A model generated the notes under the pieces. The model was not told where the DNA came from, made no database searches, and saw only the letters and a list, made by a program, of their open reading frames with translations. From the NCBI GenBank assembly GCA_934097105.1, contig CAKONI010000001.1, forward strand, positions 74,144-138,143: a stretch of 64,000 bases of DNA, in the 5' to 3' direction. Within the stretch, counting starts at the first letter, position 1. Each line of letters begins with the position of its first letter. Positions 7,696 through 57,123 of this stretch are shown here, one piece after another. Made by a program: the position numbers and the translations under genes. This DNA comes from an uncultured Bacilli bacterium (lineage in GTDB: Bacteria; Bacillota_I; Bacilli_A; RF39; UBA660).

Positions 7696-7718
7696 CAAAA
7701 ATCCACTTTGAAGTGGAT
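7696..7718 (-). terminator. Hairpin plus T-run between rpmH and rnpA (attenuator/terminator candidate)
   Basis: Stem ATCCACT/AGTGGAT with a 4-nt loop, followed on the minus strand by T5. The hairpin arm reads TTATCCACT on the minus strand. Confidence 0.4.
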
Positions 7719-7722
7719 AATA

Positions 7723-7848
7723 TTATTTTGATAAGTTTTTTCTGCCTTTTCTTCTTCTTTTATTTATAATACCTGATTTAATACGAGCGAAAAAGCCATG
7801 TTTCTTTTTCATTTTTCTATTATTAGGTTGAAAAGTTCTTTTACTCAT
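7723..7848 (-). CDS. rpmH: 50S ribosomal protein L34
   Basis: Below the ORF-track cutoff. My translation is [41 protein letters not shown] (41 aa), with GGAGG 7 nt upstream. The position upstream of rnpA and divergent from dnaA is canonical. Confidence 0.93.
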
Positions 7849-7917
7849 GAATTGCACCTCCAAACTTAATCGCTATTATTATATAAAGAAAAGTAGGTAA
7901 TTGTCAACAATTTTTCA

Positions 7918-8072
7918 CTTATTAACAAAATTAATGTTTATTAACATCACAATTTTAACAATTGTTAATACTGTTAACAAAAAATTTGTTGAAATTTGTT
8001 GAAAAGTATTTTATAGTATATAAACAAAGGAAATTATATGTTAAAAACTTTGTTAATAAGTTTGTTAATAAA
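7918..8072. promoter_or_regulatory. Cluster of TTATTAACA / TGTTAATAA boxes upstream of dnaA (candidate DnaA-box variant; oriC left half and dnaA promoter)
   Basis: CTTATTAACA at 7918-7927, TTTATTAACA at 7937-7946, TGTTAATAC at 7963-7971, TGTTAATAAG at 8051-8060 and TGTTAATAAA at 8063-8072. Confidence 0.55.
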
Positions 8073-8154
8073 TTTTTTTAGTTTTCAAAATAGAAAAAAT
8101 GTATTACAATGTATTTAGGTTGTAATTTATACTTTTAAGTGGGGAGATGGTATT

Positions 8155-9537: not shown

Positions 9538-9549
9538 AAATGTTAAAAC

Positions 9550-9665
9550 TGTTAATAGTTATTAACAAGATATTTTATAAAAAAGTACTGATACATATAG
9601 AAAAAATGAGTTATTAACAATATTAACAGTAATAATATAAATAATAATATAAATATAAAAGAAAG
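9550..9665. promoter_or_regulatory. dnaA-dnaN spacer: box cluster plus AT-rich tract (candidate oriC right half / DUE)
   Basis: TGTTAATAG at 9550-9558 abuts TTATTAACA at 9559-9567, followed by TTATTAACA at 9611-9619 and ATATTAACA at 9620-9628. Then comes a pure A/T run of TAA/TAT triplets (gtaataatataaataataatataaatataaaag) at 9629-9665. Confidence 0.5.
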
Positions 9666-9676
9666 AAGGTTTTAAG

Positions 9677-10795: not shown

Positions 10796-10797
10796 TT

Positions 10798-10821
10798 AGT
10801 CAGTTTTGCTGACTTTTTTTA
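10798..10821 (+). terminator. Rho-independent terminator after dnaN
   Basis: Stem AGTCAG/CTGACT (10798-10803 / 10809-10814), 5-nt loop, T7 run. Confidence 0.7.
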
Positions 10822-10924
10822 TTATTTTTTTCTTTTTCTACAAATTTCTTGTTATTTCGATGTTTTTTGATGTTATATATATTATGCAGTTTAAAACTGT
10901 TATAAATTTTGGGGGGATTTTTGT

Positions 10925-11383
10925 ATGAAATATGAAATTAATGATGAGACTTTGGCTATTATTCCTTATTCTGATACTAAAACTAAGGTAATTGAGGTTA
11001 ATGATGAGTATGTAGTGGATTCTACTCCATATTCTATTATGGAACATAGTTGTGAGTATTTTGGAAGTTCACTTATGGGGAGAGTTAATGGTACAAGAAG
11101 TATTTTAGGTAGTATTTATAAAACACCTATTTTTGTTGAGGAATCGAAAAAACTTATTTTTTTTCCTACTGAGGCTATTGATTCTGCTAATGTTAGTTGG
11201 GTTTCTTACAGGAATATTAGTAATGTTGAGAAATTTAATAACAAATCTATTGTTAAATTTAATAATGGGAGTGTTGTAATTATTGATTGTCCTTATTTTT
11301 CTATTAGGAATCAAATTTTTAGGTGTAATATGCTTGAGTCTATTTCAAATTCTAGAAAATTAAGTGTTAAAAAAGACGATTAA
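10925..11383 (+). CDS. ComK-family (competence transcription factor-like) protein
   Basis: 152 aa. The segment LAIIPY...KVIE...YVVDSTPYSIMEHSCEYFGSSLMGRVNGT...YKTPIFVEESKKLIFFPT...NVSWVSY parallels B. subtilis ComK (IAVLPE...KIIE...PLQIVDRSCRFFGSSYAGRKAGT...HKPPIMVDPSNQIFLFPT...CGWISH). Confidence 0.55.
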   Translation: MKYEINDETLAIIPYSDTKTKVIEVNDEYVVDSTPYSIMEHSCEYFGSSLMGRVNGTRSILGSIYKTPIFVEESKKLIFFPTEAIDSANVSWVSYRNISNVEKFNNKSIVKFNNGSVVIIDCPYFSIRNQIFRCNMLESISNSRKLSVKKDD

Positions 11384-11499
11384 ATTTGTTAAAATCGTTT
11401 TTTTTTAGTCTTTTTTATGATATAATAGTATCGTAAGTACAGGAGTACTAGTTTAGGGAGTTGATGCTATTTTGGGGTGTTTTTTAATATTTATTTGAT

Positions 11500-14515
<3,016 letters not shown>

Positions 14516-18346: not shown

Positions 18347-18352
18347 TTTTTT

Positions 18353-18432
18353 GTGCAACACATATGGTTGAAACAGGTCAGGATCGGAAGATAGCAGCCT
18401 TAAGATCCTCTGTGTGTGTGCACTTTTTTTTT
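18353..18432 (+). ncRNA. ffs: Signal recognition particle RNA, short 4.5S-like form
   Basis: ACAGGTCAGGATCGGAAGATAGCAGCC matches the domain IV core AGGUCAGGUCCGGAAGGAAGCAGCC, with a compensatory AUC/GAU stem around the GGAA tetraloop. The 5' GUGCAACACA pairs with the 3' UGUGUGUGCAC, and it ends in a U9 run. Confidence 0.85.
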
Positions 18433-27412: not shown

Positions 27413-27940
27413 ATGAAAACAATTGGGGTTGTTAGGCGTATAGATGATTTGGGAAGAGTCGTAATTCCTAAGGAAATCCGCAAGACACTTAAGATCAAGG
27501 ATGGCGAGTCAGTGGAGATTTTTATTGAAAGTGACAATATTGTTTTAAAAAAGTATCATCCTCTTGATGGAGTTCCTAACTTTTATAGGGATTATGTAGA
27601 GTCTATTCATTCTGAACTAGGTGGTAATGTTATGATTACTGATAGAGATAAAGTAGTTGCTATTTCTGGGGAGTTAAAGAAAGATTATTATGATAAACCT
27701 ATTTCCAAACAACTTGAAGATATTATTCATTCACGTTCTGTAGTTATTTGTAGAGAAAAATCTGCTGTAAGTATTGCACAAGATTATACTGTTAATGGTA
27801 GTTATGTAATTGCTCCAGTTATTTCTAATGGAGATGAGATAGGAGCAGTTATTATTTTGTTTATTAATAAATTAATTGATGATTTTAGTATAAAAACGGG
27901 AATTATTGCTTCAAAATTTTTGGGTAAGTATATTGAATAG
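27413..27940 (+). CDS. spoVT: Stage V sporulation protein T (AbrB-type N-domain + GAF-like C-domain)
   Basis: N-terminus GVVRRIDDLGRVVIPKEIRKTLKIKDGE (SpoVT/AbrB swapped hairpin). At 175 aa it matches SpoVT rather than AbrB in length, and it follows mfd as in Bacillus. Confidence 0.85.
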   Translation: MKTIGVVRRIDDLGRVVIPKEIRKTLKIKDGESVEIFIESDNIVLKKYHPLDGVPNFYRDYVESIHSELGGNVMITDRDKVVAISGELKKDYYDKPISKQLEDIIHSRSVVICREKSAVSIAQDYTVNGSYVIAPVISNGDEIGAVIILFINKLIDDFSIKTGIIASKFLGKYIE

Positions 27941-27967
27941 TTTTTATTTTTATGGTATAATTTTCTA

Positions 27968-28168
27968 AATGCGATGAAAGAAGGTTAAAATAGTTATTAT
28001 TTTTTAGAGAGTTTGTGTTTGGTGGAAACAAATATTTAATGCTATTTGGTATGACTTCTGGAGTTTGGGATTTTCCCCGGTTTAATCCGTTATTTTAATG
28101 AGATACTTATGTATAAAATAAGGTGGTACCACGGAATATTTCGTCCTTAAGAAATGTTTCTTTTTTTA
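27968..28168 (+). promoter_or_regulatory. T-box leader (Met specifier) controlling metG
   Basis: AGAGAG box at about 28006, distal-loop GGTGGAAAC, candidate specifier GGT-ATG-A at about 28049-28054, T-box AAGGTGGTACCACGG at 28120-28134, and a terminator hairpin with a T-run ending at about 28167. Confidence 0.85.
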
Positions 28169-30766: not shown

Positions 30767-30803
30767 ATGTGTTAGAATATTCTGTAATTGAGAGGTGAGT
30801 TTT

Positions 30804-31418
30804 TTGGCTAAGAGAAAGTTAAAAAAGAATTTAGGCAAAAAGATTATTTCCGGCATTTTATATGTGACAGGTGTTTTACTTATTTGTGCTGGTGTTATAG
30901 GAGTTATCAGTTTTGATGATAAAAAAATGACTAGTAATGAGAGTGAAAATAATAATTTAAATAAATATGTTTCAACTAAGGAACTTGTGGCAACTTTTAG
31001 AGAACTTAATAAAAAGAATATAAATCCTATTATGTATAGTAGTTTTGGCGCTGCTGTTTATAATTCACAGTTTTATCCTACTAGTTTTGTGGGAAAGTTG
31101 GTTCATTATGGACCGGATTGTCCAGAATGTGGTGGACATTTAGGTTGTAATGGGCAAGATGCAAGAAATGGGAATATATATTATAATGATAAAGAATATG
31201 GTAAGGTTCGTATAGTTGCAATGAGTAGTGACATACCTTGTGGAAGTATGATTAGGATAAATGTCGATGCTTATGATAAGGATGGAATGTATGCTATTGT
31301 ACTAGATAGAGGTGTTAGTGGTCCTATGGTGGATTTACTTAAGACTAGTGCTTCAGCTAGTTCACCTGTTAGAACTGTTAATAATGTTACTTTTGATATA
31401 TTAAGGTATGGATATTAA
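30804..31418 (+). CDS. Membrane-anchored 3D-domain (RlpA-like/DPBB) protein, YabE-like position
   Basis: N-terminal basic segment and TM helix, a Cys-rich insert GPDCPECGGHLGCNG, and a C-terminal VRIVAMSSDIPCGSMIRINV...AIVLDRGVSGPMVDLL resembling 3D domains. I prefer the TTG at 30804, which follows AGAGGTGA. Confidence 0.45.
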   Translation: MAKRKLKKNLGKKIISGILYVTGVLLICAGVIGVISFDDKKMTSNESENNNLNKYVSTKELVATFRELNKKNINPIMYSSFGAAVYNSQFYPTSFVGKLVHYGPDCPECGGHLGCNGQDARNGNIYYNDKEYGKVRIVAMSSDIPCGSMIRINVDAYDKDGMYAIVLDRGVSGPMVDLLKTSASASSPVRTVNNVTFDILRYGY

Positions 31419-31527
31419 GACTATTTTTTAGTCTTTTTATTTTGTAAATATGTGTAAAGTTTTTTATCTTTATTTCTGGGTTTATGTTTAATTTTTTTTT
31501 TTTTTTGGAAAAGTTAAAAAAAACGTA

Positions 31528-31556
31528 TTGATTTTTATTTTTTGTTATAGTATGAT
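31528..31556 (+). promoter_or_regulatory. Promoter of module 1 (class A1/B1 genes)
   Basis: TTGATT, 17-nt spacer, TATGAT. The block ATTGATTTTTATTTTTTGTTATAGTAT is repeated almost exactly at 33019-33045. Confidence 0.5.
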
Positions 31557-31579
31557 TGTTATAGTAAAGGAGGATTTAT

Positions 31580-32215
31580 ATGGAAAATAGAGATAACAGT
31601 CAAAATAGTCAAAAAAGAATAATTTTGGCAGTATTAGGTGTTGCTATTTTAGTAGTTGCAGTTGTAGGAATATCGTTTGCAGCGTATAGCAGTTCAAAAA
31701 CTGGTAATGTAAATAAAGTTTCTACCGGTACTATTATGTTTAGTTATGCTGAACCTACTAATGGTATTAATATTCAAAATGCTACTTCTGTTTCTGATGA
31801 TGTTGGTAAAGCTGATCAAACAAATAAGTTTGATTTTACGGTTACCACAACTACAACTAATGCTTTAACTATTCCTTATGTTATTACTTTAACAAAGGAT
31901 GCTAATAATACATTACCTGATGAAGCTGTTAATGTTTATTTAACAAAAGGTGCTGAGAATACAGTTGTCAGAGATGTTACAAGCGTTTCTAGTTTGCCTA
32001 ATTATACTAGAGGATCAGATACGACTAACACTAAGTTATTAGCAGATAAAGATACTGGTGCTGTTCATACTCATGGCGATGCTACTGCTGATAATACCAT
32101 TTCAACTAGTTATACATTTAGAATGTGGGTTAATAGTAGTGCTGCTTTATCTGGAGATACGGCACAAACTTTTAAAGCATTTATTAATGTTGATTCAACT
32201 GTTAATGCACAATAA
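31580..32215 (+). CDS. Secreted protein with SipW-cognate (TasA-type) signal peptide, class A copy 1
   Basis: 211 aa with a charged head, a TM helix and then VGISFA|AYSS. It has VSTGTIMFSY after the predicted cleavage site and a C-terminal YTFRMWVNSS...FKAFINVDS. It is a paralog of 33070..33690. Confidence 0.7.
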   Translation: MENRDNSQNSQKRIILAVLGVAILVVAVVGISFAAYSSSKTGNVNKVSTGTIMFSYAEPTNGINIQNATSVSDDVGKADQTNKFDFTVTTTTTNALTIPYVITLTKDANNTLPDEAVNVYLTKGAENTVVRDVTSVSSLPNYTRGSDTTNTKLLADKDTGAVHTHGDATADNTISTSYTFRMWVNSSAALSGDTAQTFKAFINVDSTVNAQ

Positions 32216-32244
32216 TTTGAAATTTAAGAAAGGAGAAAAAATAT

Positions 32245-32967
32245 ATGGAAGATAATAAAAAAACTTTAGTTCTTTCGATCATTGGTATATTAGTTTTAGT
32301 TATAGCTGTAGTTGGTGTTTCATTTGCTATGTTTAGTTTTTCTGGAACTGGTACAAAAGAGAATGTTATTACAACAGGTACTGTTAGTTTAGATTTTTCT
32401 ACTGTTGAAGAAGGAACAGAAACTAATGTTATTAATGTTGATAATCAGTATCCTATGGATGATACTAATGGTGTTAGTTTAGCAAATATTACAAAATCGA
32501 AGGCAGATTTTAGTGTTAAAGCTAAGTATGATGCTGATATGACAATTAATTATGAAGTTGGTATTGTAGATATTAATAAAACTGGTGATATAACTGAAGG
32601 TGCTGAAACTATTCCTGAAAAAAATGTTAAAGTTATTTTGATTAATTCTACTACTGGAGAGGCTGTAGTTGGTAGTAAAGTTGGTGAAACCTATACTGGC
32701 GTTACTGTAGAAAGTTTAGCAAGTAAAAAAGGTGCTAAAAATTTAATAACTAATTATTATTTGGCTGGTGGATCTTTTACTAAGGGTGACAATTCAGACA
32801 AATATGCAATTTATGCTTATTTAGATAAAGATTATCAATTACCTGTTGACGCTACTAAGTCAACTACTGATAATGCTGGTACAGTAACTAGAACTAATGA
32901 AAGTAAGAAAACTACTAAGAAAGCTGAATTTAGTTTTAAACTAGTTGTTAAAGCAGCTCAAGCTTAA
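32245..32967 (+). CDS. TasA/camelysin-like secreted protein with SipW-cognate signal peptide, class B copy 1
   Basis: 240 aa with VGVSFA|MFSFSG. TTGTVSLDF and INVDNQYPMDD echo TasA ASGTLDLS and VNLSNLKPGD. The C-terminal AEFSFKLVVKAAQ echoes TasA IKLQFSFEATQ. Confidence 0.7.
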   Translation: MEDNKKTLVLSIIGILVLVIAVVGVSFAMFSFSGTGTKENVITTGTVSLDFSTVEEGTETNVINVDNQYPMDDTNGVSLANITKSKADFSVKAKYDADMTINYEVGIVDINKTGDITEGAETIPEKNVKVILINSTTGEAVVGSKVGETYTGVTVESLASKKGAKNLITNYYLAGGSFTKGDNSDKYAIYAYLDKDYQLPVDATKSTTDNAGTVTRTNESKKTTKKAEFSFKLVVKAAQA

Positions 32968-32971
32968 TTTG

Positions 32972-32998
32972 AAGGATGCATTATGCATCTTTTTTTGT
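32972..32998 (+). terminator. Rho-independent terminator after module 1
   Basis: Stem AAGGATGCA/TGCATCTTT with a 3-nt loop, followed by a T-run. Confidence 0.6.
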
Positions 32999-33019
32999 TT
33001 GATTTAATATATAAAATTA

Positions 33020-33048
33020 TTGATTTTTATTTTTTCTTATTGTATTAT
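33020..33048 (+). promoter_or_regulatory. Promoter of module 2 (class A2/B2 genes)
   Basis: TTGATT, 17-nt spacer, TATTAT; a near-identical block to 31527-31553. Confidence 0.5.
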
Positions 33049-33069
33049 TAATATAGTGAGGAGGATTTA

Positions 33070-33690
33070 ATGAAAAAGATAGAAAATAATTATGGGAAAA
33101 TGTTACTTTCGGTTTTGGGTGTTACAATTCTTACTGTTGCTGTTATTGGAATATCATTTGCGGCGTATGCTGGAACTAAAACTAGTGAAGTAAATAAGAT
33201 TTCTACGGGTACTATTACTTTTAGTTATGCTGAACCTACTAATGGAATTACTTTAAATAATGCTGTTCCTGTTAGTGATAGTGTTGGTAAACAATTGAAT
33301 AACACTTTTGATTTTACGGTTAATACGACTACTACTAATGCTTTAACTATTCCTTATGTTGTTACAATGACTAAAGCAAGTGCAACAGAGGGAGAACTTT
33401 GGCTTTCTGATAGTGATGTTACTGTTTATGTAACAAAAAATAATGATGATGTTGCTCTTCCTGAGACTAAGGTTTCTGATCTTACTACTTTTGATAGAAA
33501 TGGTGATTCTAGTAATACAAAGTTATTGTTTGATTCTAGTCATATTCATAATTCTGATGTTACTAATAATACTATTTCTACAAATTATACATTTAGAATG
33601 TGGGTTAATCAATCTGCCAATTTAGATGGTGTTGATAGTCATGTCTATAAGGTCTTTATTAATGTTGATTCTGCTATTAAGGGACAATAG
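33070..33690 (+). CDS. Secreted protein with SipW-cognate signal peptide, class A copy 2
   Basis: 206 aa with IGISFA|AYAG, ISTGTITFSYAEPTNGI and YTFRMWVNQS...YKVFINVDS. By eye it is more than half identical to 31580..32215. Confidence 0.7.
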   Translation: MKKIENNYGKMLLSVLGVTILTVAVIGISFAAYAGTKTSEVNKISTGTITFSYAEPTNGITLNNAVPVSDSVGKQLNNTFDFTVNTTTTNALTIPYVVTMTKASATEGELWLSDSDVTVYVTKNNDDVALPETKVSDLTTFDRNGDSSNTKLLFDSSHIHNSDVTNNTISTNYTFRMWVNQSANLDGVDSHVYKVFINVDSAIKGQ

Positions 33691-33709
33691 TGGTTTGTAG
33701 GAGGATGTT

Positions 33710-34432
33710 ATGAAAAATAAAAGAAATTTGATGATTTCTGTCTTTGCTATATTGATTTTAATTGTAGTTGTAATTGGTGTTTCATTTGCTATATTTAGTT
33801 TTTCTGGGACTGGAACTAAGGAGAATGTTATAACTACTGGTGTTGTTTCTTTAAATTTTGATGATGTTGAGGGAAGTACTGTTTCAAAGACTATTAATGT
33901 TGATAATGAATATCCTATGGATGATACTAATGGTGTTAATATTGATAATGTTAAGGCTAAGGCTGATTTTACTGTTAAGGCTGACTATAATGCAAATATG
34001 ACTGTTAATTATGAAATTGGTATTACGGATATTAATGAAAATATTGCTGATGAAATGGAACAAATTAGTTCTAATTATGTAAAAGTTATATTATTTGATG
34101 GCTCTGGTAAGATTTTGCTTGGAAATGCAGTTGGCTCTAATTTTTCTGGTGTTACTGTTGATAGTTTGAAATCTGTTGCTGGGCCAAATGGTTTAATTAA
34201 TAATTATTATTTGGCAAGTGGTTCATTTACTAATATTAATAAATCTGAGAAATATACTATGTATGCTTATTTAGATAAAGATTATCAATTACCTGTTGAT
34301 TCTACTCAAACTACGACTGATAATGGTGGTACAGTTAGTAGAAATAATGATGATGCTACAAGCAAGAGTAAGAAGACTACTAAGAGGGCAGAATTTAATT
34401 TTAAATTATTTATAAAGGCTGCTCAAGTTTAA
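33710..34432 (+). CDS. TasA/camelysin-like secreted protein, class B copy 2
   Basis: 240 aa with IGVSFA|IFSFSGTGTKENVITTG, DKDYQLPVD and AEFNFKLFIKAAQV. It is a paralog of 32245..32967. Confidence 0.7.
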   Translation: MKNKRNLMISVFAILILIVVVIGVSFAIFSFSGTGTKENVITTGVVSLNFDDVEGSTVSKTINVDNEYPMDDTNGVNIDNVKAKADFTVKADYNANMTVNYEIGITDINENIADEMEQISSNYVKVILFDGSGKILLGNAVGSNFSGVTVDSLKSVAGPNGLINNYYLASGSFTNINKSEKYTMYAYLDKDYQLPVDSTQTTTDNGGTVSRNNDDATSKSKKTTKRAEFNFKLFIKAAQV

Positions 34433-34459
34433 AAATGTGCATATTTTGTACATTTTTTT
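34433..34459 (+). terminator. Rho-independent terminator after module 2
   Basis: Stem ATGTGCA/TGTACAT (one G-U pair), 5-nt loop, T7. Confidence 0.55.
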
Positions 34460-34555
34460 GTGTTAATGTAAATTAAGTATAAAATTATTTATATTTTTCT
34501 TTTAAATTTAATTTTTTTGTGATAATATATTAGTATAGGTATGATAGGTGATTAT

Positions 34556-35380
34556 ATGAAAGATAAAGAGCGTAATATTTTTGAAGAAAAAAAAGTAATA
34601 GCGGATGAAGTTGCAGATGAAATATTAGCTGAGCGTAGTAATGATGATACGAGTTGTTTTCCTTTAATATTGATATTTTTGGTGTGTTTAGTATTTTTGA
34701 TTGCGTCGGTTTCTTTTGCTATATTTAATACTGTTGTCAATAATAATGCGGTTGATGTAGATATTAATGTTAATAAACCTGATGTAGATATCAATAAAAG
34801 ACCAAATAAAAATAATAATAATAAACCTGATAATAATGGAAATAATACTAATGGGAATAGTAATGACAATAGTAAAAATGATTCAAATAAAGATAATAAT
34901 TCTAAAAATCCATCAATAAGCAAGGATTTAGTTTTATTTACATTTAGTTCTGGTTCAAATTATATTAATATGCAAAATGTTTTTTCTATGTCTGATGTTG
35001 AAGGAATTGCTCTTAAAGGTGATAAAGAATACTTTGATTTTAATGTTTCTGCGTCACTAAATTCTAAGAAGAGAGGTTCAATTGTTTATGAAATCTCACT
35101 TGTACCTTTAAAGGATAATACTATTTCTGAAGATTTTATTAGAGTTTATTTGACTGAGAATGATTCACCTGTTTCTGTTTTAAGTGATAATGTTAGTAAT
35201 TTCTCGGATCTTCCAAAAAGTAAGTTTTCTTCGAATGGAAGAGTTATATACAAAAAAACTGTGAATTCTAGTTTTAATGGTAACTATGTATTTAAGATGT
35301 GGGTTTCTTCTAAGGCTGATTTTTCTAATGTTTCTAAAAAATTCGGTTGTCGTGTTATGGTGAATGCTTATTATAAATAA
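34556..35380 (+). CDS. Class A-related protein with long cytoplasmic head, SipW-type signal anchor and N/K/D-rich spacer
   Basis: ASVSFA|IFNT after the TM helix, then an approximately 55-aa low-complexity tract (NKPDVDINKRPNKNNNNKPDNNGNNTNGNSNDNSKNDSNKDNNSKNPS). The C-terminal YVFKMWVSSKADFS...RVMVNAYY is the class A signature. I chose the ATG at 34556, which follows TAGGTGA. Confidence 0.6.
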   Translation: MKDKERNIFEEKKVIADEVADEILAERSNDDTSCFPLILIFLVCLVFLIASVSFAIFNTVVNNNAVDVDINVNKPDVDINKRPNKNNNNKPDNNGNNTNGNSNDNSKNDSNKDNNSKNPSISKDLVLFTFSSGSNYINMQNVFSMSDVEGIALKGDKEYFDFNVSASLNSKKRGSIVYEISLVPLKDNTISEDFIRVYLTENDSPVSVLSDNVSNFSDLPKSKFSSNGRVIYKKTVNSSFNGNYVFKMWVSSKADFSNVSKKFGCRVMVNAYYK

Positions 35381-35395
35381 AAGAGGTTGATAAAT

Positions 35396-36031
35396 ATGCA
35401 TAAAGTTCTTAATAGAATTGCTAAAATTTTTTCTACTGCTATTTTTGTAGTTTTGGTGTTTATTATCGCACTGATTATTGGATATGTTATTAGAGTTAAT
35501 TATCTGTCTAAGAATGGTGATCTTGGAAAGGTTAATACTAACTTTTATACTATTTTGACTCAAAGTATGTATCCTACTATTAAGGCTGGAGATGTTGTTG
35601 TTACTTATAAGGATGATAAAGATAAATATAATGTCGGTGATGTTGTAACTTTTATTTCTGATTCTAATGGTGGAATTACTGTTACTCACCGTGTGGTTGA
35701 AGTTTACGAACTTAATGGTTATTATTCTTATGCTACAAAGGGTGATAATAATAACGCTAAAGATAGTGAGATGGTTAAGAGTGACAATGTTCTTGGAAAA
35801 GTTGTTTTGAAAATTCCAAAAATTGGGTACGCACAACAGTTTTTGGTTTCTAAAACTGGTTGGATTGCAGCAGTTCTGTTACCTTGTTTAGGTGTTGTAA
35901 TATATGACATTATGAAATTAGTGATGTCTATCTTTGGCAAGGGAAAGGGAAAAATAAAAGAAAGTGCAAGTACTATTGCTGCAAGAAAAAGATTAGAAGA
36001 GGTGGTTGATGATGATGACGGGGAAGAATAA
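35396..36031 (+). CDS. sipW: Signal peptidase I, SipW / ER-archaeal type
   Basis: Ser box TQSMYPTIKAGD, His box ITVTHRVVEV and ATKGDNNNAKD (the GDNN box typical of SipW/Sec11-type SPases), plus a C-terminal TM helix and acidic tail. The ATG at 35396 lies 9 nt after AAGAGG. Confidence 0.85.
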   Translation: MHKVLNRIAKIFSTAIFVVLVFIIALIIGYVIRVNYLSKNGDLGKVNTNFYTILTQSMYPTIKAGDVVVTYKDDKDKYNVGDVVTFISDSNGGITVTHRVVEVYELNGYYSYATKGDNNNAKDSEMVKSDNVLGKVVLKIPKIGYAQQFLVSKTGWIAAVLLPCLGVVIYDIMKLVMSIFGKGKGKIKESASTIAARKRLEEVVDDDDGEE

Positions 36032-36617
36032 TTTTTTGAGTAATGATGAATTTACTGAAGAGGTTGATGCTAATTCTTTGTATAGTTATGTAAATCAAAA
36101 TGATATTGTGGCTATTAAAAAACAGGCAAAAGTTAATGTTTTAATTTCTATAGCAATTACTTTTATTGTTATTGCTGTGCTTTTGTCTTTTATGGGCTTT
36201 TTCCTTCTTTATAAAGGAGGGGATTCTATTTTTATTAATTCATCTACTAAATATAATTTATTTGTTACTCATACAACTAGTACTTATGGTGGTGTTATTG
36301 ATTCTTTTAAGGATTATAATTCATCTGATACTGCTTATGTTTATAAGTTTAATGTTCAAAATAACAATAATGTTAGTTTAAAGTATGATGTTGTTCTTGA
36401 GAATCTATCTTTTTCTGAGGGTAGTAATTATAATTTAATTAATTATTCTTTACTTAACTTTGATAATGAAATGGCTATGGGTACTTTAGATAGTGTAAAA
36501 AGTTTTAAGTTGCTTTCTCGAGATATAGGTTCTAGTGTTTCTGATAATTATACTTTGAAGTTGTGGTCTAGTAGTTTTCCAAGTAGTTTTTCTTTTAAAA
36601 TTGATATTAATGTATAG
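36006..36617 (+). CDS. Class A-related membrane-anchored/secreted protein
   Basis: 203 aa with an approximately 40-aa cytoplasmic head and a TM helix ending LLSFMGFF. The C-terminal NYTLKLWSSSFPSSFSFKIDINV is the class A signature. It overlaps the sipW 3' end. Confidence 0.55.
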   Translation: MMMMTGKNNFLSNDEFTEEVDANSLYSYVNQNDIVAIKKQAKVNVLISIAITFIVIAVLLSFMGFFLLYKGGDSIFINSSTKYNLFVTHTTSTYGGVIDSFKDYNSSDTAYVYKFNVQNNNNVSLKYDVVLENLSFSEGSNYNLINYSLLNFDNEMAMGTLDSVKSFKLLSRDIGSSVSDNYTLKLWSSSFPSSFSFKIDINV

Positions 36618-36626
36618 GAGGTTATT

Positions 36627-37307
36627 ATGAAAAAGATGTTTGCGGAGTTTTTGGTTGTTTTTGCTGAATGTATTTTAGTTATTTGTTTGGCTTTTGTTTC
36701 TTTTATATTTGTTCTTAACATATATCATTATGAAGATATTTCTTATGTATATAATATTAAGCCTTCTGAAAGCAAGACTTATAATGATTTTAAGACTAGT
36801 ATTGATAAGTCTTCTAAAAAACTTAGTAAAGTAAAGGCAAATACTAGTGGAGCGTCTATGGCAATACATAGTGATTTGAAAAGTTGTTTTGATACTATTA
36901 AAAAGGGTTATTATTATAAGGATTTAGCGAATAAGGAAACTCTTGAAAGTAAGGATATTTATTATTCAAATCGTGATATTATTGATAATGTTAGTAACAA
37001 GTGTTTATTTAGAATTTCTTATGATATAGATTCTTTTAAGAAAAGTGAAAATTTTAATCATTCTTTTTCTGATATTTATGATGATATTGCAGATAAAAGA
37101 GATATTATTGTTTCTAATTCTGAATTTTTATTAAAACTTGAATATTCTAATAGTTCATATTCTTTTAGTACGCAAGATTTTAAATATGGAATTTTTAATA
37201 GAACTTCTAGTGAACTTTCTTTAACGTATAATAACTATAAAGTTGTTGCTTCGCTTCTTGATGATATTGTTGATTGGTATGTTTTAGAGTATGGAGGTAA
37301 TAGATAA
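36627..37307 (+). CDS. Single-pass membrane protein, hypothetical (locus accessory)
   Basis: 226 aa with RBS AGGAGG, an N-terminal TM anchor, and a Tyr/Ser/Asp-rich extracytoplasmic domain in which I recognise no motif. Confidence 0.5.
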   Translation: MKKMFAEFLVVFAECILVICLAFVSFIFVLNIYHYEDISYVYNIKPSESKTYNDFKTSIDKSSKKLSKVKANTSGASMAIHSDLKSCFDTIKKGYYYKDLANKETLESKDIYYSNRDIIDNVSNKCLFRISYDIDSFKKSENFNHSFSDIYDDIADKRDIIVSNSEFLLKLEYSNSSYSFSTQDFKYGIFNRTSSELSLTYNNYKVVASLLDDIVDWYVLEYGGNR

Positions 37308-37840
37308 TGAAGAAAGTTTTATGTAAGGTATTGAGTTTTCTTAAATATATTTTACTTATTGTAAGTTTTGGATTAGTATTTTATTGCCTTTTGACTACTT
37401 ATTCGAGACTTGAGAAACCTATTACAGATGGAATTAATGTTCTTCTACCATTTGGTCTTGTTTTAATTTGTTTTTTGGTTAGTTTAATTTCTAGAGCAAA
37501 ATATGTTTCTAAGAGTTTATTATTTAATTTTGTAGCAGTTTTTATTTTTGTTACTTCGATTATTGTTTGTCTTAGGGCAATGTATGATACTAATATGTTT
37601 TTGTACTTTAAATATGAAATAAACTTTAATCCTTCTTATTTTTCTGATAATTTGTCTTTTATATTAATGGAACTTTATATGTTGTTTGCAGCGAATGTTA
37701 TACTTCTTATTGCTAGTTTTGTTGATAAGGATAAGAAAAAGGTTGTTAGAAAAGAAGAAAAAACTAATGATGATTTAAAAAAGAAAAAAGTATATAATAT
37801 TACTGATGATGACGATTATAGTGATGAAGAGGGTGAGTAA
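37307..37840 (+). CDS. Four-helix integral membrane protein with K/D/E-rich tail, hypothetical (locus accessory)
   Basis: 177 aa. A TAATG overlap with the upstream gene suggests translational coupling. Confidence 0.5.
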   Translation: MKKVLCKVLSFLKYILLIVSFGLVFYCLLTTYSRLEKPITDGINVLLPFGLVLICFLVSLISRAKYVSKSLLFNFVAVFIFVTSIIVCLRAMYDTNMFLYFKYEINFNPSYFSDNLSFILMELYMLFAANVILLIASFVDKDKKKVVRKEEKTNDDLKKKKVYNITDDDDYSDEEGE

Positions 37841-37946
37841 AATTCTTCTTCTTTTTTTTATGTTTTTGTGGTAAGATTAATTTAATAATATTTTTAATTT
37901 TTTGAAGTGAGGTGTCTTTATCGGGTTTTGTTTCTCGAATTTGATT

Positions 37947-38782: not shown

Positions 38783-39574
38783 GTGCTTTTTAATATTGGA
38801 GATTTAGTTACTAGGAAGTCTTATAATAATGATATGGTTTTTAGGATTAAATCTTTTAAGGATAAGATGGTTGTACTAGAGGGAGTCAATATTCGGCTTA
38901 TTGCGGATGCGCCAGTTGATGATTTAGAAATATGTAAAGATTGTGTTGATGATATTACTAGTGATGATAGAGATTTATTTGATAATATGGGTGATTTACT
39001 TGATTTAAATAGGGATAATTATTTTTATTTGCCGGGTAAAATTTTACATATTGATGGTGATAAAAATTATCTTGATAGATGTATAGAATTTTATAAAAAT
39101 ATGAACATAGTTTGTTATGGAATTATTCTTAATGAGGGAGAAATTTCTAAAAAAATTAGGGGTTTACTGGATGATGTTAATCCTGATGTTTTGGTAATTA
39201 CTGGTCATGATGCGTATTATGATAGTGGGAATAAATATAATGATATTTCTAATTATAAGAATAGTAAAAATTTTGTTAATGCAGTTAAGGAAGCCAGAAA
39301 GTACGAGAAAGATCATGAAAAACTGGTTATTATTGCTGGAGCGTGTCAATCTGATTATGAGGAATTAATTAAGGCTGGTTCTAATTTTGCTTCGAGTCCT
39401 AAGAGAATTAATATTCATGCTTTGGATCCTGCGATTGTTGCTAGTTCTGTTTGTTTATCCAATAAAAGTCAACCAATAGATTTGTTTAAAATTTTGGATA
39501 GAACTAAATATGGTAAAGATGGTATGGGTGGAATTATTACTAATGGTATGATGTACGTGGGGTTTCCTAGATGA
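38783..39574 (+). CDS. yabG: Sporulation-specific protease YabG (peptidase U57)
   Basis: IGDLVTRKSYNNDMVFRI, PGKILHIDGD, PDVLVITGHD, IIAGACQS and GSNFASSP...IHALDP, aligning full length with YabG. GTG start after GAGGTGA. Confidence 0.85.
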   Translation: MLFNIGDLVTRKSYNNDMVFRIKSFKDKMVVLEGVNIRLIADAPVDDLEICKDCVDDITSDDRDLFDNMGDLLDLNRDNYFYLPGKILHIDGDKNYLDRCIEFYKNMNIVCYGIILNEGEISKKIRGLLDDVNPDVLVITGHDAYYDSGNKYNDISNYKNSKNFVNAVKEARKYEKDHEKLVIIAGACQSDYEELIKAGSNFASSPKRINIHALDPAIVASSVCLSNKSQPIDLFKILDRTKYGKDGMGGIITNGMMYVGFPR

Positions 39575-39874: not shown

Positions 39875-39915
39875 TAGTGTTAGAAGCAGGGTTGCTTTTA
39901 AAAAGGAGGATAAAG

Positions 39916-40176
39916 ATGAAGATTACATCAGTAAATGTACGTAAGGTTGAAAAGGAAGGCTCTCGTATGAAAGGAATTGCTTCAGTTTTAATTGATGATT
40001 GTTTTGCAATTCATGATATTCGTATTATTGAAGGAGATAATGGTTTGTTTATTGCTATGCCTAGCAGAAAAACAACTACTGGAGGATATCGTGATATAGC
40101 ACATCCTATTAACCCTGAAACACGTACTTTGTTTGAAGAATCTATTTTAGAAGCATTTAATACTGCTGAAGAATAG
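39916..40176 (+). CDS. spoVG: Septation/RNA-binding protein SpoVG
   Basis: [52 protein letters not shown], with RBS AAGGAGG. Confidence 0.93.
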
Positions 40177-40251
40177 TATATTAAAACACTTTATGTGTTT
40201 TTTTTTGAATATTTTTTTCTTTTTTTCATATATTTTATCAGGAGGAAAATT

Positions 40252-40536
40252 ATGGAAAAGTTTGCAGAAAATATAAGTTATAATCATGGAATTAGTATTA
40301 ATGAAAGGAAAATTATTTATGTGACTGGAGTTAACAAACTTGAAAGTTTTGATGAACAGGAATTTTTACTTGATACGAGTATGGGTTTTTTAGTTATAAA
40401 GGGTAATTCTTTGGAAATTATTAAATTGGATACTAAAGATGGAACTCTTGCTATTAAGGGAAGTTTTGATAGTATGTCTTATTTTGAAAATTTAAGGAAA
40501 TCTAAGTCTTCTTTCTTTGATAAGTTGTTTAAATGA
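40252..40536 (+). CDS. yabP: Sporulation protein YabP
   Basis: The start is trimmed to MEKFAEN (AGGAGG upstream). Contains ISINERKIIYVTGVNKLESFDEQEFLLDTSMGFLVIKGNSLEI, typical of the YabP/YqfC family. Confidence 0.7.
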   Translation: MEKFAENISYNHGISINERKIIYVTGVNKLESFDEQEFLLDTSMGFLVIKGNSLEIIKLDTKDGTLAIKGSFDSMSYFENLRKSKSSFFDKLFK

Positions 40537-40805
40537 TACTTTCGGAACAAATTTTTTCTTTACTTTTTTGTGTTTTTTTTGGTTTTGGATACTGCTTTGT
40601 TTTTTATATATTTAAGAAGTTTTTACTTTATGCTAAATACCATATTTTGTTTAATGTTTTTTTTAATTTGATTATGTCTATTTTATTTTTTATTGGTATA
40701 ATTCAAATTAATGATGGAACTTTGAGTTTGTATTATTTGTTGTTTGTTTTAATTGGTTTTTTACTTTTTAGACTATCATTTGTCACTTTTAAGTGTCAAA
40801 TATAG
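40533..40805 (+). CDS. yabQ: Spore cortex biosynthesis protein YabQ-like small membrane protein
   Basis: 90 aa with three TM helices and a 4-nt overlap with yabP. The call rests mainly on position and topology. Confidence 0.45.
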   Translation: MILSEQIFSLLFCVFFGFGYCFVFYIFKKFLLYAKYHILFNVFFNLIMSILFFIGIIQINDGTLSLYYLLFVLIGFLLFRLSFVTFKCQI

Positions 40806-47359: not shown

Positions 47360-48850
47360 ATGAAAAAAAATAATTTATTTAAGGCAGTAGGTATAGTCAT
47401 TCTTGCTTATGTATTGTTTTCATGGATAGTACCAATTATTTATGGTATTGTTGGCGCTGAAGGCGAAGTTTCTAAACAAATTGGAATTATTTCTATTTTT
47501 TCAGTTGTTCTTGAAACATTTTCAGGATTCGGATCTGTTATACTTTATGTACTGTTAGTAGGAGCATTTTATGGTGTTCTTAAAGTTACAGGTGCTTATG
47601 ATAAGATTATGAACAGTTTTATGAAGTTTGCTAGTGGCAAAGAACAAACTTTATTAATTGCAATTATGATTATTATGGCTCTTTTATCTTCATTTGCAGG
47701 ACTTGACTTAGGATTTTTAGTTGTTATTCCTTTCTTAATTGGATTTATTGTTAAGGTTGGATATAACAAACTAGTTGCTTTAAGTGCTACTGTAGGTTCT
47801 ATTATAATTGGTATGTATGGTGCTACATTTGCTGGTACTTTATATGGTTATAATAATGAAATTCTTAGTTTAAAGGCTACAGATCAACTTTTATTTAAAG
47901 TTATATTATTTGTACTTGGACTTGCCCTTTTAATTTTCTTTGTACTTATGTATTGTAAGAAAAATAATCTTGTTGGAGATGCTAGTAAGGCGCTTAAGGC
48001 TAATAGTACAAAGGAAAAGACTGTTAAGGCTTCTGCTAGTTCTAAATCTAGCAAGAAAAGTGTTAATGAAAAAGTTGCTAAAGATAAGAAGAATAAAACT
48101 ACTAAGGAACGTGGACCTGTTGGTGCAATTATTGTAAGTTCTATTATGTTACTTGTTATGATTTTAGGAACTATTTCTTGGAAATCTATGCTTGGAGTTA
48201 GTTCTTTTGAGAGTTTACATAAGAGTTGGACTGAACTTAAAATAGGTGGATTTGATATTCTTAATAAGATATTTGGTGGTATTGATGCTTTTGGTACTTG
48301 GAATACACCAGTTAGATTTCAAACTTATTCTATTTTATTAATTATTGCTATGATTATTATTTCAATTATTTACAGAACAAGTGTTAAGGATACTTTTGAG
48401 GGATTTGTAGATGGTATTAAATCATTTGTTGTTCCTGCAATTATTACTATTTTGGCTTGTTCAGTGTTTGTATTTGTATATTATAATCCTGTAATAACTC
48501 CAGTTACTCAATTATTGCTTACTGCGACTGATGAGTTTAATGTTGCTCTTTCAGGTATTTATACAATTATTAATAGTGCGGTTTATGTTGATTATTATTA
48601 CTTTGCCAATGCTGTACTTTATTCTATTGCATCTGTATATGAAGATAGTGCAGTCTTATCAATAATCAGTGTAATGTTTGCTAACTTATATAGTTTAGTA
48701 ATGTTAGTTGCTCCAACTAGTGTATTATTGCTTATAGGATTATCTATTAGTGATGTTGAATATACTTCTTGGATTAAGTATATTTGGAAACTTGCACTTG
48801 CATTATTACTATTATCATTCATAGTTTTTGTAATAATGTTATTAGTTTAA
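47360..48850 (+). CDS. Multi-pass membrane protein, YfcC/DcuC-like putative transporter with K/S-rich cytoplasmic loop
   Basis: 496 aa with more than 10 TM helices. N-terminal half motifs (VLLVGAFYGVLKVTGAYDK, LLSSFAGL) resemble the YfcC family. This assignment is tentative. Confidence 0.4.
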   Translation: MKKNNLFKAVGIVILAYVLFSWIVPIIYGIVGAEGEVSKQIGIISIFSVVLETFSGFGSVILYVLLVGAFYGVLKVTGAYDKIMNSFMKFASGKEQTLLIAIMIIMALLSSFAGLDLGFLVVIPFLIGFIVKVGYNKLVALSATVGSIIIGMYGATFAGTLYGYNNEILSLKATDQLLFKVILFVLGLALLIFFVLMYCKKNNLVGDASKALKANSTKEKTVKASASSKSSKKSVNEKVAKDKKNKTTKERGPVGAIIVSSIMLLVMILGTISWKSMLGVSSFESLHKSWTELKIGGFDILNKIFGGIDAFGTWNTPVRFQTYSILLIIAMIIISIIYRTSVKDTFEGFVDGIKSFVVPAIITILACSVFVFVYYNPVITPVTQLLLTATDEFNVALSGIYTIINSAVYVDYYYFANAVLYSIASVYEDSAVLSIISVMFANLYSLVMLVAPTSVLLLIGLSISDVEYTSWIKYIWKLALALLLLSFIVFVIMLLV

Positions 48851-54135: not shown

Positions 54136-54813
54136 ATGGATAGTATTATTTATTTATTGTTTTTTATATCTTTTGCGATTACTTTGATTGCACAAATTTT
54201 GGTTAGTGCTAGATATAGTAAGTATTCTAAAATTACGAATAGCAAAGGTTTGACTGGGTTTGATGTTGCTAAGAAGATTTTGGAAAAGAATGATTTAGGA
54301 GATATTTATGTAGTTGAAACTAAGGGTTATTTGTCTGATCATTATGATCCTGGGCATAATGTTATTAGACTTTCTCATGGGGTTTTTCATGGTGAAAGTT
54401 TGAGCGCTGCTGCTATTGCGGCTCATGAGGTAGGACATGCTATTCAGAAAAAACAGGGCAACTTTTTTATGAAAATTCGTAGTTTTATATTTCCTGTTGT
54501 TAATTTTTCTTCTAAGTTTGGTTATATTGCTATATTAATAGGACTTATTTTTGGGTATATGAGGTTATTTTATTTAGGAATTTTTATGCTTTTTGTTATT
54601 TTGTTTTTCCAACTTGTTACGCTTCCTGTTGAGTTTGACGCGTCTAGAAGGGCTATGGCTAATTTAGAAAAGTATAATATTCTTCTTGCTGATGAAAAAC
54701 GTGGCGCTAGAAAGGTTTTAGTGGCTGCGGCACTTACGTATGTTGCTAGTTTAGTTACTACTCTTCTTGAAATTTTTAGACTTCTTTTAGTTGTAATGGG
54801 TAATAGAGATTAA
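54136..54813 (+). CDS. Membrane zinc metallopeptidase, YugP family
   Basis: 225 aa with the HEVGHAIQ zinc motif and flanking TM helices. Confidence 0.75.
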   Translation: MDSIIYLLFFISFAITLIAQILVSARYSKYSKITNSKGLTGFDVAKKILEKNDLGDIYVVETKGYLSDHYDPGHNVIRLSHGVFHGESLSAAAIAAHEVGHAIQKKQGNFFMKIRSFIFPVVNFSSKFGYIAILIGLIFGYMRLFYLGIFMLFVILFFQLVTLPVEFDASRRAMANLEKYNILLADEKRGARKVLVAAALTYVASLVTTLLEIFRLLLVVMGNRD

Positions 54814-56493: not shown

Positions 56494-57123
56494 ATGGATA
56501 ATACGATTTCACTTAGACAATTTATTGATAGAAGAGATGAATTTGATAATATTAGGATCAATACTTTTTGTCGTCTAATGAAGAAGGTTTCTTCGGCAAT
56601 TGATAAAGAGGAAAATAATATTATAAGAATTAATTTAGATGAAATTCGTATTAATGTTCTTACTGGTGATATAATATTTCCTAGTAATTTATTAAATGAT
56701 GGGGGAAATTCTTTTAAAACAGTTGCAGGTTTTAATACTGGTGTTGGTTTGATGGCCGATAGAAAGAGTTCTTTGGAGCACAAAAGAATATCATTTGCAC
56801 TTATGTTTTTAGGATGGTATTGTAATGATGATAGGAGTGCTATTATTAGTGATATTAATGTTTTAGAGAATTTTGATTACTATATGAGTAAGGTACCTAG
56901 TTGGTTACAGGACTATTTTATTGCTGTTTTTAAGAGAATGGACTATAATATTTCTTTTTCTGATTATTATGATAAAAACTTTACTGAGGATGTTAAAAAT
57001 AATATAAAAAACTCTTTTAAAGAGTATAATTTACCTGATGAACAACTTAAAAGTATTATGAAAGTTGTTATGAAAAAGGCAGATAATATGGTGTTTAGGG
57101 GTGAGAATAATGGACAGATTTAA
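56494..57123 (+). CDS. Hypothetical cytoplasmic protein
   Basis: 209-aa ORF with host-like T/G-rich codon usage and no motif I recognise. Confidence 0.5.
   Translation: MDNTISLRQFIDRRDEFDNIRINTFCRLMKKVSSAIDKEENNIIRINLDEIRINVLTGDIIFPSNLLNDGGNSFKTVAGFNTGVGLMADRKSSLEHKRISFALMFLGWYCNDDRSAIISDINVLENFDYYMSKVPSWLQDYFIAVFKRMDYNISFSDYYDKNFTEDVKNNIKNSFKEYNLPDEQLKSIMKVVMKKADNMVFRGENNGQI

Follow-up and report, generated by a model that had tools for sequence, protein, structure and literature searches.

In Bacillus subtilis, the tapA-sipW-tasA operon encodes a dedicated signal peptidase of the archaeal/endoplasmic reticulum (ER) type among its own substrates, as does sipW-tasA/calY in B. cereus. The SipW operon of Clostridium perfringens carries several TasA-like proteins, and BsaA oligomers are membrane-anchored there, docking onto a signal-peptide-tethered monomer before the SipW cut (PMC11580942). 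When TasA forms fibres, its residues 28-61, made up of a donor strand, a hinge and a self-complementing strand, are rearranged (PMC9674648). The aromatic P2' residue makes TasA a poor substrate of LepB and a substrate of SipW (PMC10269814). Here we describe a SipW locus in a 64,000-nucleotide (nt) stretch of DNA from an uncultured Bacilli bacterium (contig CAKONI010000001.1), called the window. Nine open reading frames (ORFs) lie head to tail on its plus strand at 31580-37840, all where a preceding reading of the bare letters (the sequence-only reading) had placed them, and are named A1, B1, A2, B2, A3, SipW, A4, M1 and M2. The locus very likely encodes a SipW-dependent system of exported surface proteins. 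We also lean towards a more specific reading, in which it is a lineage-specific, vertically inherited operon that builds cell-surface structures from mature beta-sandwich proteins of ~20 kDa needing a dedicated SipW-type peptidase.

Comparison with described systems

The locus shares several features with tapA-sipW-tasA in addition to the dedicated peptidase. The signal peptides end in a small-aromatic-Ala motif followed by Ala and an aromatic residue (TWA↓AF there, SFA↓AF/AY here; arrows mark the point of cleavage). The N-terminal region also aligns in register with the TasA segment that comprises the donor strand, hinge and self-complementing strand. The mature domain is predicted to be a small jellyroll-like beta-sandwich, no sortase or LPXTG motif is involved, and each system has an accessory protein close to the membrane or wall (TapA there, A4 or M1 here). 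In contrast to the Bacillus operons, PF12389 is lacking here, with no significant profile match beyond the N-terminus and no Foldseek match. Five apparently cleavable paralogues and one uncleavable paralogue stand in place of one major subunit plus TapA, and the locus differs further in its orphan proteins M1 and M2, its lineage-wide fixed position near the replication origin and its adhesin-domain fusions.

The C. perfringens operon sipW-bsaA-bsaB-bsaC likewise combines SipW with several paralogous secreted beta-sandwich proteins. However, BsaA and BsaB are recognisable, if remote, homologues of TasA, an N-K isopeptide, with a catalytic E, locks BsaA, and BsaC is a von Willebrand factor A protein that needs type IV pilus proteins, with nothing comparable encoded here. 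A BsaA-like isopeptide lock was rejected after inspection of the alignments of class A (A1, A2 and their orthologues) and class B (B1, B2 and theirs), in which no invariant Lys or N-E-K triad is evident.

Archaeal bundling pili (ABP; AbpA/AbpB), archaeal threads, chaperone-usher pili and type V pili resemble the proposed system in having jellyroll or immunoglobulin-like subunits with a donated N-terminal strand. AbpA/AbpB and other donor-strand filaments also offer parallels in signal-peptidase-I-type processing and in operons with extra single-pass membrane proteins bearing beta-rich ectodomains. They differ in that no sequence or fold relation is detectable and no usher or chaperone is found here, and ABP loci contain no dedicated peptidase, whereas this cassette always does. 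Sortase-assembled pili and LPXTG proteins are functional analogues only. They share tandem major and minor subunit genes beside a processing enzyme, adhesin-domain paralogues and a basal anchoring subunit, but the present proteins have no LPXTG motif or C-terminal anchor, the window has no sortase, and processing would be N-terminal, by signal peptidase.

The SipW peptidase

SipW (35396-36031, plus strand; the ORF opening at 35387) has N- and C-terminal transmembrane (TM) segments, with hydropathy peaks at residues 17-35 and 154-183, and an acidic tail. It matches TIGR02228, the model for archaeal/ER-type signal peptidase I (SipW/Sec11/SPC18), at 105.1 bits against a cut-off of 51.85 (E 3.2e-30, residues 17-175 of 214). 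Aligned to human SEC11A (PDB 7P2P), its SMYP, THRV and KGDNN boxes fall in register with SMEP, VHRV and KGDNN, placing the Ser, His and Asp; human SEC11C also aligns with it in a search of solved structures. All three positions are conserved across 32 orthologues, so the protein has the catalytic Ser, His and Asp of the archaeal/ER-type class instead of the bacterial Ser-Lys dyad. The sequence-only reading had named a SipW/ER-type signal peptidase and staked that name on a Ser/His pair that would survive alignment; the pair is intact and the name holds. Against NF046067, the equivalog model for Bacillus SipW, the protein scores 102.7 bits, under the cut-off of 190. Judged by these profiles, it is an enzyme of the same class as Bacillus SipW and not its orthologue. 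At one locus (L010:4618-5262), in a single metagenome-assembled genome (MAG), SipW is broken into two ORFs, possibly through a frameshift, pseudogene formation or assembly error.

Signal peptides and the N-terminal module

In five of the six neighbouring proteins, the hydrophobic helix ends in a G(V/I)SFA-type motif followed by any residue and then an aromatic one. The junctions read VGISFA↓AY (A1), VGVSFA↓MF (B1), IGISFA↓AY (A2), IGVSFA↓IF (B2) and ASVSFA↓IF (A3), as they had been quoted before. The whole layout is that of a SipW-dependent signal, namely a basic n-region, a hydrophobic helix, small-aromatic-Ala↓x-aromatic and then an ...N.x.xGT(L/I) block, with sipW adjacent. Motifs were counted over the non-redundant homologues of each subfamily, the strand motif being N.[IVLF].[TSA]G[TSQN][ILV]. 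Class A keeps S[FWY]A at the helix end in 186/216 sequences (six listed exceptions are T/A variants), with Ala at P1' in 161, Phe or Tyr at P2' in 160/186 and the strand motif in 191/216. For class B the corresponding figures are 39/39, Met at P1' in 35, Tyr or Phe at P2' in 39/39, and 32/39. S[FWY]A occurs in 18/47 A3 sequences, the remainder being of an ISMA↓TF type, and the strand motif in 26/47. Among A4 sequences, S[FWY]A is found in 6/64, mostly away from the helix end (median position 96), and the strand motif in 2/64. From the sequence comparisons, the junction motifs are conserved and do not arise by chance. SipW-style signal peptides had been proposed for all six neighbours; five carry small-aromatic-Ala↓x-aromatic, but the sixth (36006, A4) lacks the motif here and in its orthologues.

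Conservation is distributed unevenly along class A and class B proteins. Per-column identity is 93-95% over the hydrophobic helix and cleavage site (window 31616-31681 and 32263-32328), 62-85% over the first ~25 mature residues and 52-57% over the folded core. The predicted local distance difference test (pLDDT) score is ~33-56 for those first mature residues and 86-89 for the core. The mature N-terminal segment, AF/Y-S-x-S...N-x-I-x-T-G-T-I/V, is thus strongly conserved and is not confidently packed on its own domain in AlphaFold2 (AF2) models. The conservation of the helix suggests a sequence-specific membrane contact (with SipW, M1 or M2) or a helix that is retained.

A large superfamily of putative substrates

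None of the six proteins matched any Pfam family, even at E<=1, PF12389 (Peptidase_M73) included. All-against-all BLASTP gave 54% identity between A1 (31580-32215, plus strand, 211 aa) and A2 (33070-33690, plus, 206 aa), and 60% between B1 (32245-32967, plus) and B2 (33710-34432, plus), both of 240 aa; A1 and B1 match the class A and class B hidden Markov models (HMMs) at E 1e-76 and 1.5e-92. The N-terminal halves link A with B at E 1e-8 to 1e-10, and A3 (34556-35380, plus; 274 aa from 34556, the ORF opening at 34541) is linked to A at 6e-11. A4 (36006-36617, plus, 203 aa) was linked to no other window protein by BLASTP. Profile comparison with hhalign, using alignments of the orthologues of each subfamily built from related loci, joined A with B (99.9% probability, E 2e-37), A with A3 (100%, E 3.5e-45), A with A4 (95.3%, E 2e-8) and A3 with A4 (97.3%, E 2e-11), whereas the M1 and M2 profiles matched none of the others. 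Because hhalign links A with B, A3 and A4, and A3 with A4, the six proteins are assigned by sequence to four orthologous subfamilies of one superfamily. This replaces an earlier division into two families, whose 'class A' lumped A, A3 and A4 (hhalign 95-100%).

A3 and A4 depart from the plan of the other members. In A3, an N/K/D-rich low-complexity linker (window 34700-34900, residues ~65-125) lies between the signal peptide and the conserved beta-domain of the family, and a cytoplasmic N-extension of ~40 aa precedes the TM helix; its orthologues share a cytoplasmic VAD.VADEIL motif before that helix. A4, a divergent member, likewise has a cytoplasmic N-terminus of ~40 aa and a TM helix, and lacks both the cleavage motif and the N-terminal strand motif. 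Its orthologues retain the beta-core and the C-terminal Y.LKLW...F.FKI.I strands.

The superfamily is large and has no Pfam or NCBIfam model. Word-indexed searches returned 267 clusters (90% identity) of A1 homologues and 231 of B1 homologues, all unnamed, without a Pfam domain, and from metagenomes or 'Bacilli bacterium' MAGs. When 1.84 billion representative sequences were searched exhaustively with HMMER, the combined A+B profile matched 5,684 clusters (50% identity) at E<=1e-3, 2,647 at E<=1e-10 and 420 at E<=1e-30. Many members are 500-1,561 aa long with the family module at the N-terminus. The passenger domains of these long members are BspA-type leucine-rich repeats (LRR), Big_2 (four stretches in protein P0486) or an ALK/LTK-type glycine-rich domain (PF12810, E 7e-41), and in most cases no known domain is present, as in the 1,561-aa member. 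Large-passenger fusions include L037:16001-17650, L057:2133-5495 and the proteins P0451, P0486 and P0404, and a member of 1,120 aa sits within a cassette.

Relationship to TasA and other folds

The mature part (residues 28-261) of the B. subtilis TasA query matches PDB 8AUR exactly, and PF12389 is present in 120/120 TasA homologues retrieved. The class A and class B profiles matched no PDB sequence, and NF046066 was touched by 1/38 class A homologues (E 0.0016). With hhalign, class A aligned to a shallow TasA profile at 73% probability, over the N-terminus only, and to a 111-sequence PF12389 (TasA/CalY) profile at 48% (E 1.9e-4), over 59 N-terminal columns only; class B aligned to the TasA profile in the same register at 3.5%. 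The aligned blocks pair the signal peptides, SFA↓AF with TWA↓AF, N.I.TGTI with N.FAAGTLDL, and I.L.NA.P with F.LSNLKP, so that class A residues ~11-70 are collinear with the TasA family signal peptide and residues 28-61. The proposed likeness to the SipW-cognate signal of TasA and CalY therefore stands for the collinear N-terminal module (TWA↓AF versus SFA↓AF), but the cut-off of the signal model TIGR04088 is missed. A C-terminal echo of TasA claimed for class B was recovered by no alignment.

The AF2 models of A1 (pLDDT 76, core >85) and B1 (pLDDT 76.6), with a predicted template modelling score of 0.70-0.71 for both, each begin with a helix, which a linker of low confidence joins to an all-beta domain. 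Searched against the PDB with Foldseek, they retrieved generic jellyrolls and beta-sandwiches: carbohydrate-binding modules (CBMs), birnavirus VP2, PapG/FimG pilin domains and adhesin domains (best E 1.4e-3, template modelling score <=0.41). At the level of the jellyroll-like beta-sandwich class, the models are compatible with the TasA/camelysin folds that had been expected, but neither TasA nor CalY, nor AbpA, was among the top 50 matches. Membership of the TasA/camelysin family was rejected, as Pfam, NCBIfam, the PDB profile search, hhalign (shallow and deep) and Foldseek leave only a signal-peptide-driven N-terminal similarity. Homology of the mature domain to TasA is not demonstrable, and the models are compatible with substrates that share with TasA a SipW-type N-terminal module and the same broad jellyroll-like beta-sandwich fold class.

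Other relationships were also discarded. A search of BFVD for viral structural relatives gave weak jellyroll matches only. A type IV pilin or pseudopilin does not fit a cleavage motif placed after, not before, the hydrophobic helix, and no prepilin peptidase or ATPase occurs among the window ORFs scanned; weak PilV/BasC matches to class A and B homologues are confined to the TM segment. A sortase pilus or LPXTG protein does not fit a single N-terminal hydrophobic segment per protein and C-termini of the types ...NVDSTVNAQ and ...VVKAAQA, and no sortase occurs among the same ORFs.

Distribution and inheritance of the cassette

One genome per species was scanned, 185,579 species in all. The class B profile yielded 38 loci and the M2 profile 31; from the 191 relatives obtained with the class A profile, 80 were retained. 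With these three profiles no cultured host was found among the species genomes, only MAGs, one of them a closed chromosome of 1.52 Mb. Their labels are Bacilli, Tenericutes or Mycoplasma sp., for example 'Mycoplasma sp. CAG:611', 'Clostridium sp. CAG:451' and Candidatus Onthousia. From names such as CAG-611, we take them to belong to RF39/RFN20-type GTDB orders; in the NCBI taxonomy, Ca. Onthousia is placed no more precisely than Bacilli incertae sedis. Within the reach of these searches, the SipW system is confined to uncultured reduced-genome gut Bacilli, and no literature was found on SipW in RF39, RFN20 or Tenericutes.

HMM mapping in ~100 species-level genomes revealed a fixed order on one strand, [1-7 A/B-type genes]-(A3)-SipW-A4-M1-M2. 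SipW lies directly downstream of substrate genes in every locus with enough flank, A3 stands immediately 5' of SipW in most loci, and M1 follows A4 in nearly all cassettes. A4 was undetected in eight loci of the first scan (L019, L020, L021, L023, L026, L028, L029 and L037, the genome of the last recurring as L098). The nine genes of the window are thus a conserved seven-gene cassette to which a tandem copy of the A-B pair has been added, which refines the nine-gene SipW locus with six substrates that had been described. The most divergent locus, from a Mycoplasmatota MAG (L038:4237-6846), is a minimal A-A-A3-SipW with rsmA directly next; A4, M1 and M2 were undetected there. The occurrence of substrate families without SipW had been named as a possible refutation; SipW is always part of the cassette, but some dispersed paralogues have no adjacent SipW. 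In MAG Lapin-012 bin84, family members occur at no fewer than 11 separate loci (L091, L093, L099, L105, L108, L111, L117, L119, L121, L123 and L125), most of which have no SipW beside them. Such a scattered multiplication of paralogues recalls families of variable surface proteins.

In the first 38 loci, the set whose flanks were compared, metG-tatD-(3D-domain gene) borders the cassette on one side and rsmA-yabG-veg-spoVG on the other in every contig long enough to show them, and the flanking orthologues are 50-77% identical. This shared chromosomal slot argues for an ancestral cassette that is vertically inherited and not mobile. A mobile or accessory island was rejected on the same slot, on the lack of a composition break, on codon usage like that of the flanks and on the failure to find phage or plasmid homologues. 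G+C (0.25-0.30) and GC skew are those of the surroundings, and codon usage correlates with the flanks at r=0.983 against 0.987 for a split-half control of the flanks themselves. The sequence-only reading was therefore right about host-like codon usage, whereas its 'accessory system' gives way to a locus that is syntenic across the lineage. Bacilli-type synteny also appears in bins labelled Lachnospiraceae, Bacteroidaceae and Muribaculaceae (L005, L008, L021 and L037, and also L051, L053, L098 and L126); these contigs were probably mis-binned in public MAGs.

The membrane proteins M1 and M2

M1 (36627-37307, plus strand, 226 aa) is a bitopic membrane protein of an orphan family whose alignment shows a conserved N.YH after the TM segment, two conserved Cys and a C-terminal W..E.GG. 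M2 (37307-37840, plus, 177 aa), also an orphan, has four TM helices by hydropathy, a charged C-terminal tail and, in its alignment, invariant R34/L35/K37, P48, R90/D94/M97 and N108; the genome scan confines it to the same lineage. Neither protein has a Pfam or PDB relative. Assignments of M2 to DUF6057 or TgpA_N were rejected as weak and inconsistent among members. Both genes are spaced for translational coupling, as had been proposed, A4 and M1 being separated by +9 nt and M1 and M2 overlapping (-1 nt).

Proposed assembly and alternative explanations

The cassette is probably a fibre or adhesin-display system of uncultured small-genome gut Bacilli. In the assembly that we propose, A, B and A3 precursors would be exported by Sec through their N-terminal TM signal peptides and then cut by SipW after the Ala of SFA. 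The cut would free the conserved N-terminal segment to act as a donor strand for the next subunit, as in TasA and BsaA, giving a fibre of A and B as major and A3 as minor subunits. Polymerisation by donor-strand exchange is a serious possibility, which we advance with some reserve. A4, with its beta-core but no cleavage site or N-terminal strand, would for that reason stay membrane-bound as an anchor for the fibre, accepting a strand but donating none; the BsaA scheme, in which a polymer docks on a tethered monomer before the SipW cut, gives A4 a natural role of this kind. We propose the anchor only tentatively. Long paralogues with C-terminal LRR, Big_2 or glycine-rich domains may deliver adhesive passengers on the same scaffold, and M1 and M2, because they are co-encoded with SipW and A4, might form a membrane platform as chaperone, nucleator or anchor partner. 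In favour of this assembly we count the identity and triad of SipW, the conserved cleavage motif with its aromatic P2', the recurrent cassette in one slot, the single superfamily, the register shared with TasA residues 28-61, a mature N-terminus that is conserved but modelled with low confidence, the motifs missing from A4, the BsaA precedent, the adhesin-type fusions and the reported absence of sortases from the orders RFN20 and ML615J-28 (PMC10868615).

Several observations weigh against this assembly. TIGR04088, the model for SipW-cognate signals that had been suggested as a check, gives A1 13.7 bits, below its 19-bit cut-off, though the two align end to end over all 34 model positions; at E<=1, no more than 4/38 proteins of class A (best E 0.0049) and none of the 38 in class B are matched. 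In hhalign, the resemblance to TasA drops below 0.3% once signal peptides are removed and is 0.4% in global mode, so 'TasA-style' fails as a statement of homology, and neither profiles, PDB, Foldseek nor BFVD related the proteins significantly, by sequence or by fold, to TasA, CalY, AbpA or any pilin. A linker that is flexible, together with an alignment of just 38 sequences, could account for the low N-terminal pLDDT. The degree of conservation of the hydrophobic helix, higher than cleavage requires, also counts against the assembly, as the helix could be retained. The presence of SipW would be less specific if it were the sole signal peptidase I of these reduced genomes. Polymerisation is a plausible prediction, and the roles suggested for M1 and M2 are drawn from their co-occurrence with the other genes.

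A different account, which we regard as rather unlikely, holds that SipW processes surface proteins that do not polymerise, such as adhesins, a coat or S-layer-like covering, or matrix, with tandem paralogues providing antigenic or functional diversity and A4, M1 and M2 acting as unrelated membrane partners or retention factors. A generic beta-sandwich is as like CBMs and adhesin domains as pilins, no homology to a fibre subunit is demonstrated, copy number varies from 1 to 7 with 11 dispersed loci in one MAG, and LRR and Big_2 adhesin domains are fused to the family module; all of this suits such proteins. What they leave unexplained is why conservation in the mature protein peaks in its first 25 residues, which are nevertheless unpacked in the monomer model, and why a cleavage-less, strand-less A4 is invariably encoded with SipW; moreover, the characterised substrate families of SipW operons (TasA, CalY and BsaA) all polymerise. 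We give distinctly less credence to the idea that the N-terminal helices are uncleaved signal anchors of type II membrane proteins that display beta-sandwich ectodomains in thin-walled or wall-deficient, sortase-poor Bacilli, SipW being a general peptidase or acting on some members. Per-column conservation of 93-95% in the hydrophobic segment exceeds the need of Sec targeting and cleavage, so the helix could be retained; a canonical site is missing from A4 and from many orthologues of A3, and related orders include peptidoglycan-deficient lineages without sortases (PMC10868615). Uncleaved anchors are difficult to reconcile, however, with an invariant small-x-Ala (-3/-1) at the helix end and a conserved P1'/P2', as at the TasA cut (TWA↓AF), or with SipW positionally locked to substrate genes in ~100 genomes. 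That A4 lacks the cleavage motif while the other subfamilies have it further indicates that the motif is functional in those others.

It is very improbable that the cassette specifies a spore-surface component, either a coat-associated protein or a spore appendage, and not a vegetative fibre. TasA was first described as spore coat-associated (PMC9674648), and sporulation-associated genes immediately surround the cassette (27413-27940, 38783-39574 and 39877-40805), YabG, YabP and SpoVG passing their cut-offs, YabQ falling just under and an AbrB-family SpoVT-like protein below. The organism may still sporulate. This neighbourhood, however, is the conserved origin-proximal order of Bacillus into which the cassette is inserted, so that adjacency carries no regulatory information, and the cassette also occurs in MAGs labelled Tenericutes or Mycoplasma.

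Expression signals and chromosomal neighbourhood

Start codons at 34556 (A3) and 35396 (SipW) are preferred over the longer-ORF starts at 34541 and 35387 by their ribosome-binding-site context. Together with the values given for M1 and M2, the spacing of A3-SipW (+6 nt) and SipW-A4 (-26 nt) supports translational coupling from A3 to M2. All expression signals lie on the plus strand. A promoter-like site 5' of A1 (31528-31556; TTGATT-17-TATGAT) has 9/12 consensus matches and is weak, such sites being frequent in AT-rich DNA; a consensus scan placed another 5' of A2 (33020-33048). A terminator-like hairpin directly 3' of B1 (32971-33003) has a 10-bp stem, a 3-nt loop and a T-rich tail, and attenuation is possible there, after the first A-B pair. 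In the gap between B2 and A3, a hairpin with a U-run (34431-34457; 11-bp stem AAAAAUGUGCA...UGUACAUUUUU) is a possible terminator or attenuator, in a region that overall is not significantly structured (z -1.4). Terminator-like hairpins after A-B pairs fit the expectation for over-expressed major subunits, and we count them in favour of the proposed assembly. A weak terminator-like hairpin with a 5-bp stem lies between M2 and rsmA (37921-37938; low confidence).

The window spans the replication origin, with mnmG, an ABC exporter, mnmE, jag and yidC on the minus strand and dnaA, dnaN and recF on the plus strand (608-12603), and the cassette lies ~23 kb from dnaA in the same orientation. A Bacillus-like order precedes it (dnaX, recR, holB, ricT, pth, mfd, spoVT-like, T-box-metG, tatD) and follows it (rsmA, yabG, veg, spoVG, yabP, yabQ, tilS, ftsH, dusB, lysS, clpC-like, gltX, cysS, rlmB, sigH-like, secA). 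NCBIfam cut-offs are passed by metG, tatD, rsmA, yabG, spoVG and yabP and missed by veg (31.7 bits) and yabQ (29.6 bits). The cassette had been placed at a break in the order metG-tatD-yabE, rsmA-yabG-veg; metG, tatD, rsmA and yabG bear this out, but veg is below its cut-off and the 'yabE' of that description, a 207-aa ORF (30795-31418), has an unconfirmed 3D-domain label. This ORF is one of four without an NCBIfam match among well-annotated housekeeping genes, the others being 47360-48850 (496 aa), 54136-54813 (225 aa) and 56494-57123 (209 aa). A T-box leader (27965-28151, 95 bits) stands directly 5' of metG, and a small signal recognition particle RNA lies at 18347-18432 (56.5 bits). In agreement with the sequence-only reading, no sortase or prepilin peptidase was found among the ~30 flanking window ORFs scanned, and no LPXTG motif at the C-termini.

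Implications

RF39/RFN20-type Bacilli are widespread in gut and rumen, and to our knowledge nothing is known about their cell surface; the cassette is a strong candidate for surface building and attachment to hosts or particles in these bacteria. RFN20 and ML615J-28 have been reported to lack srtA/B, and reduced surface protein expression was inferred for them from the absence of sortase (PMC10868615). It is conceivable, though doubtful at present, that the cassette represents a new class of Gram-positive surface filament, ancestral to a large uncultured clade of gut Bacilli with reduced genomes (RF39/RFN20-like) and present in nearly all of them, with SipW-licensed donor-strand polymerisation, an A4 anchor and an M1/M2 platform, built from a superfamily that is not demonstrably related to TasA. 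If so, these bacteria would use it in place of sortase pili and as their principal means of displaying adhesins (LRR, Big_2 and glycine-rich passengers) to the host gut. The locus also extends the pairing of SipW with cognate substrates beyond recognisable TasA homologues, and the pair of cleavable and uncleavable paralogues offers a concrete model for anchoring a fibre without sortase. Curated family models would let thousands of 'hypothetical proteins' in gut metagenomes be annotated.

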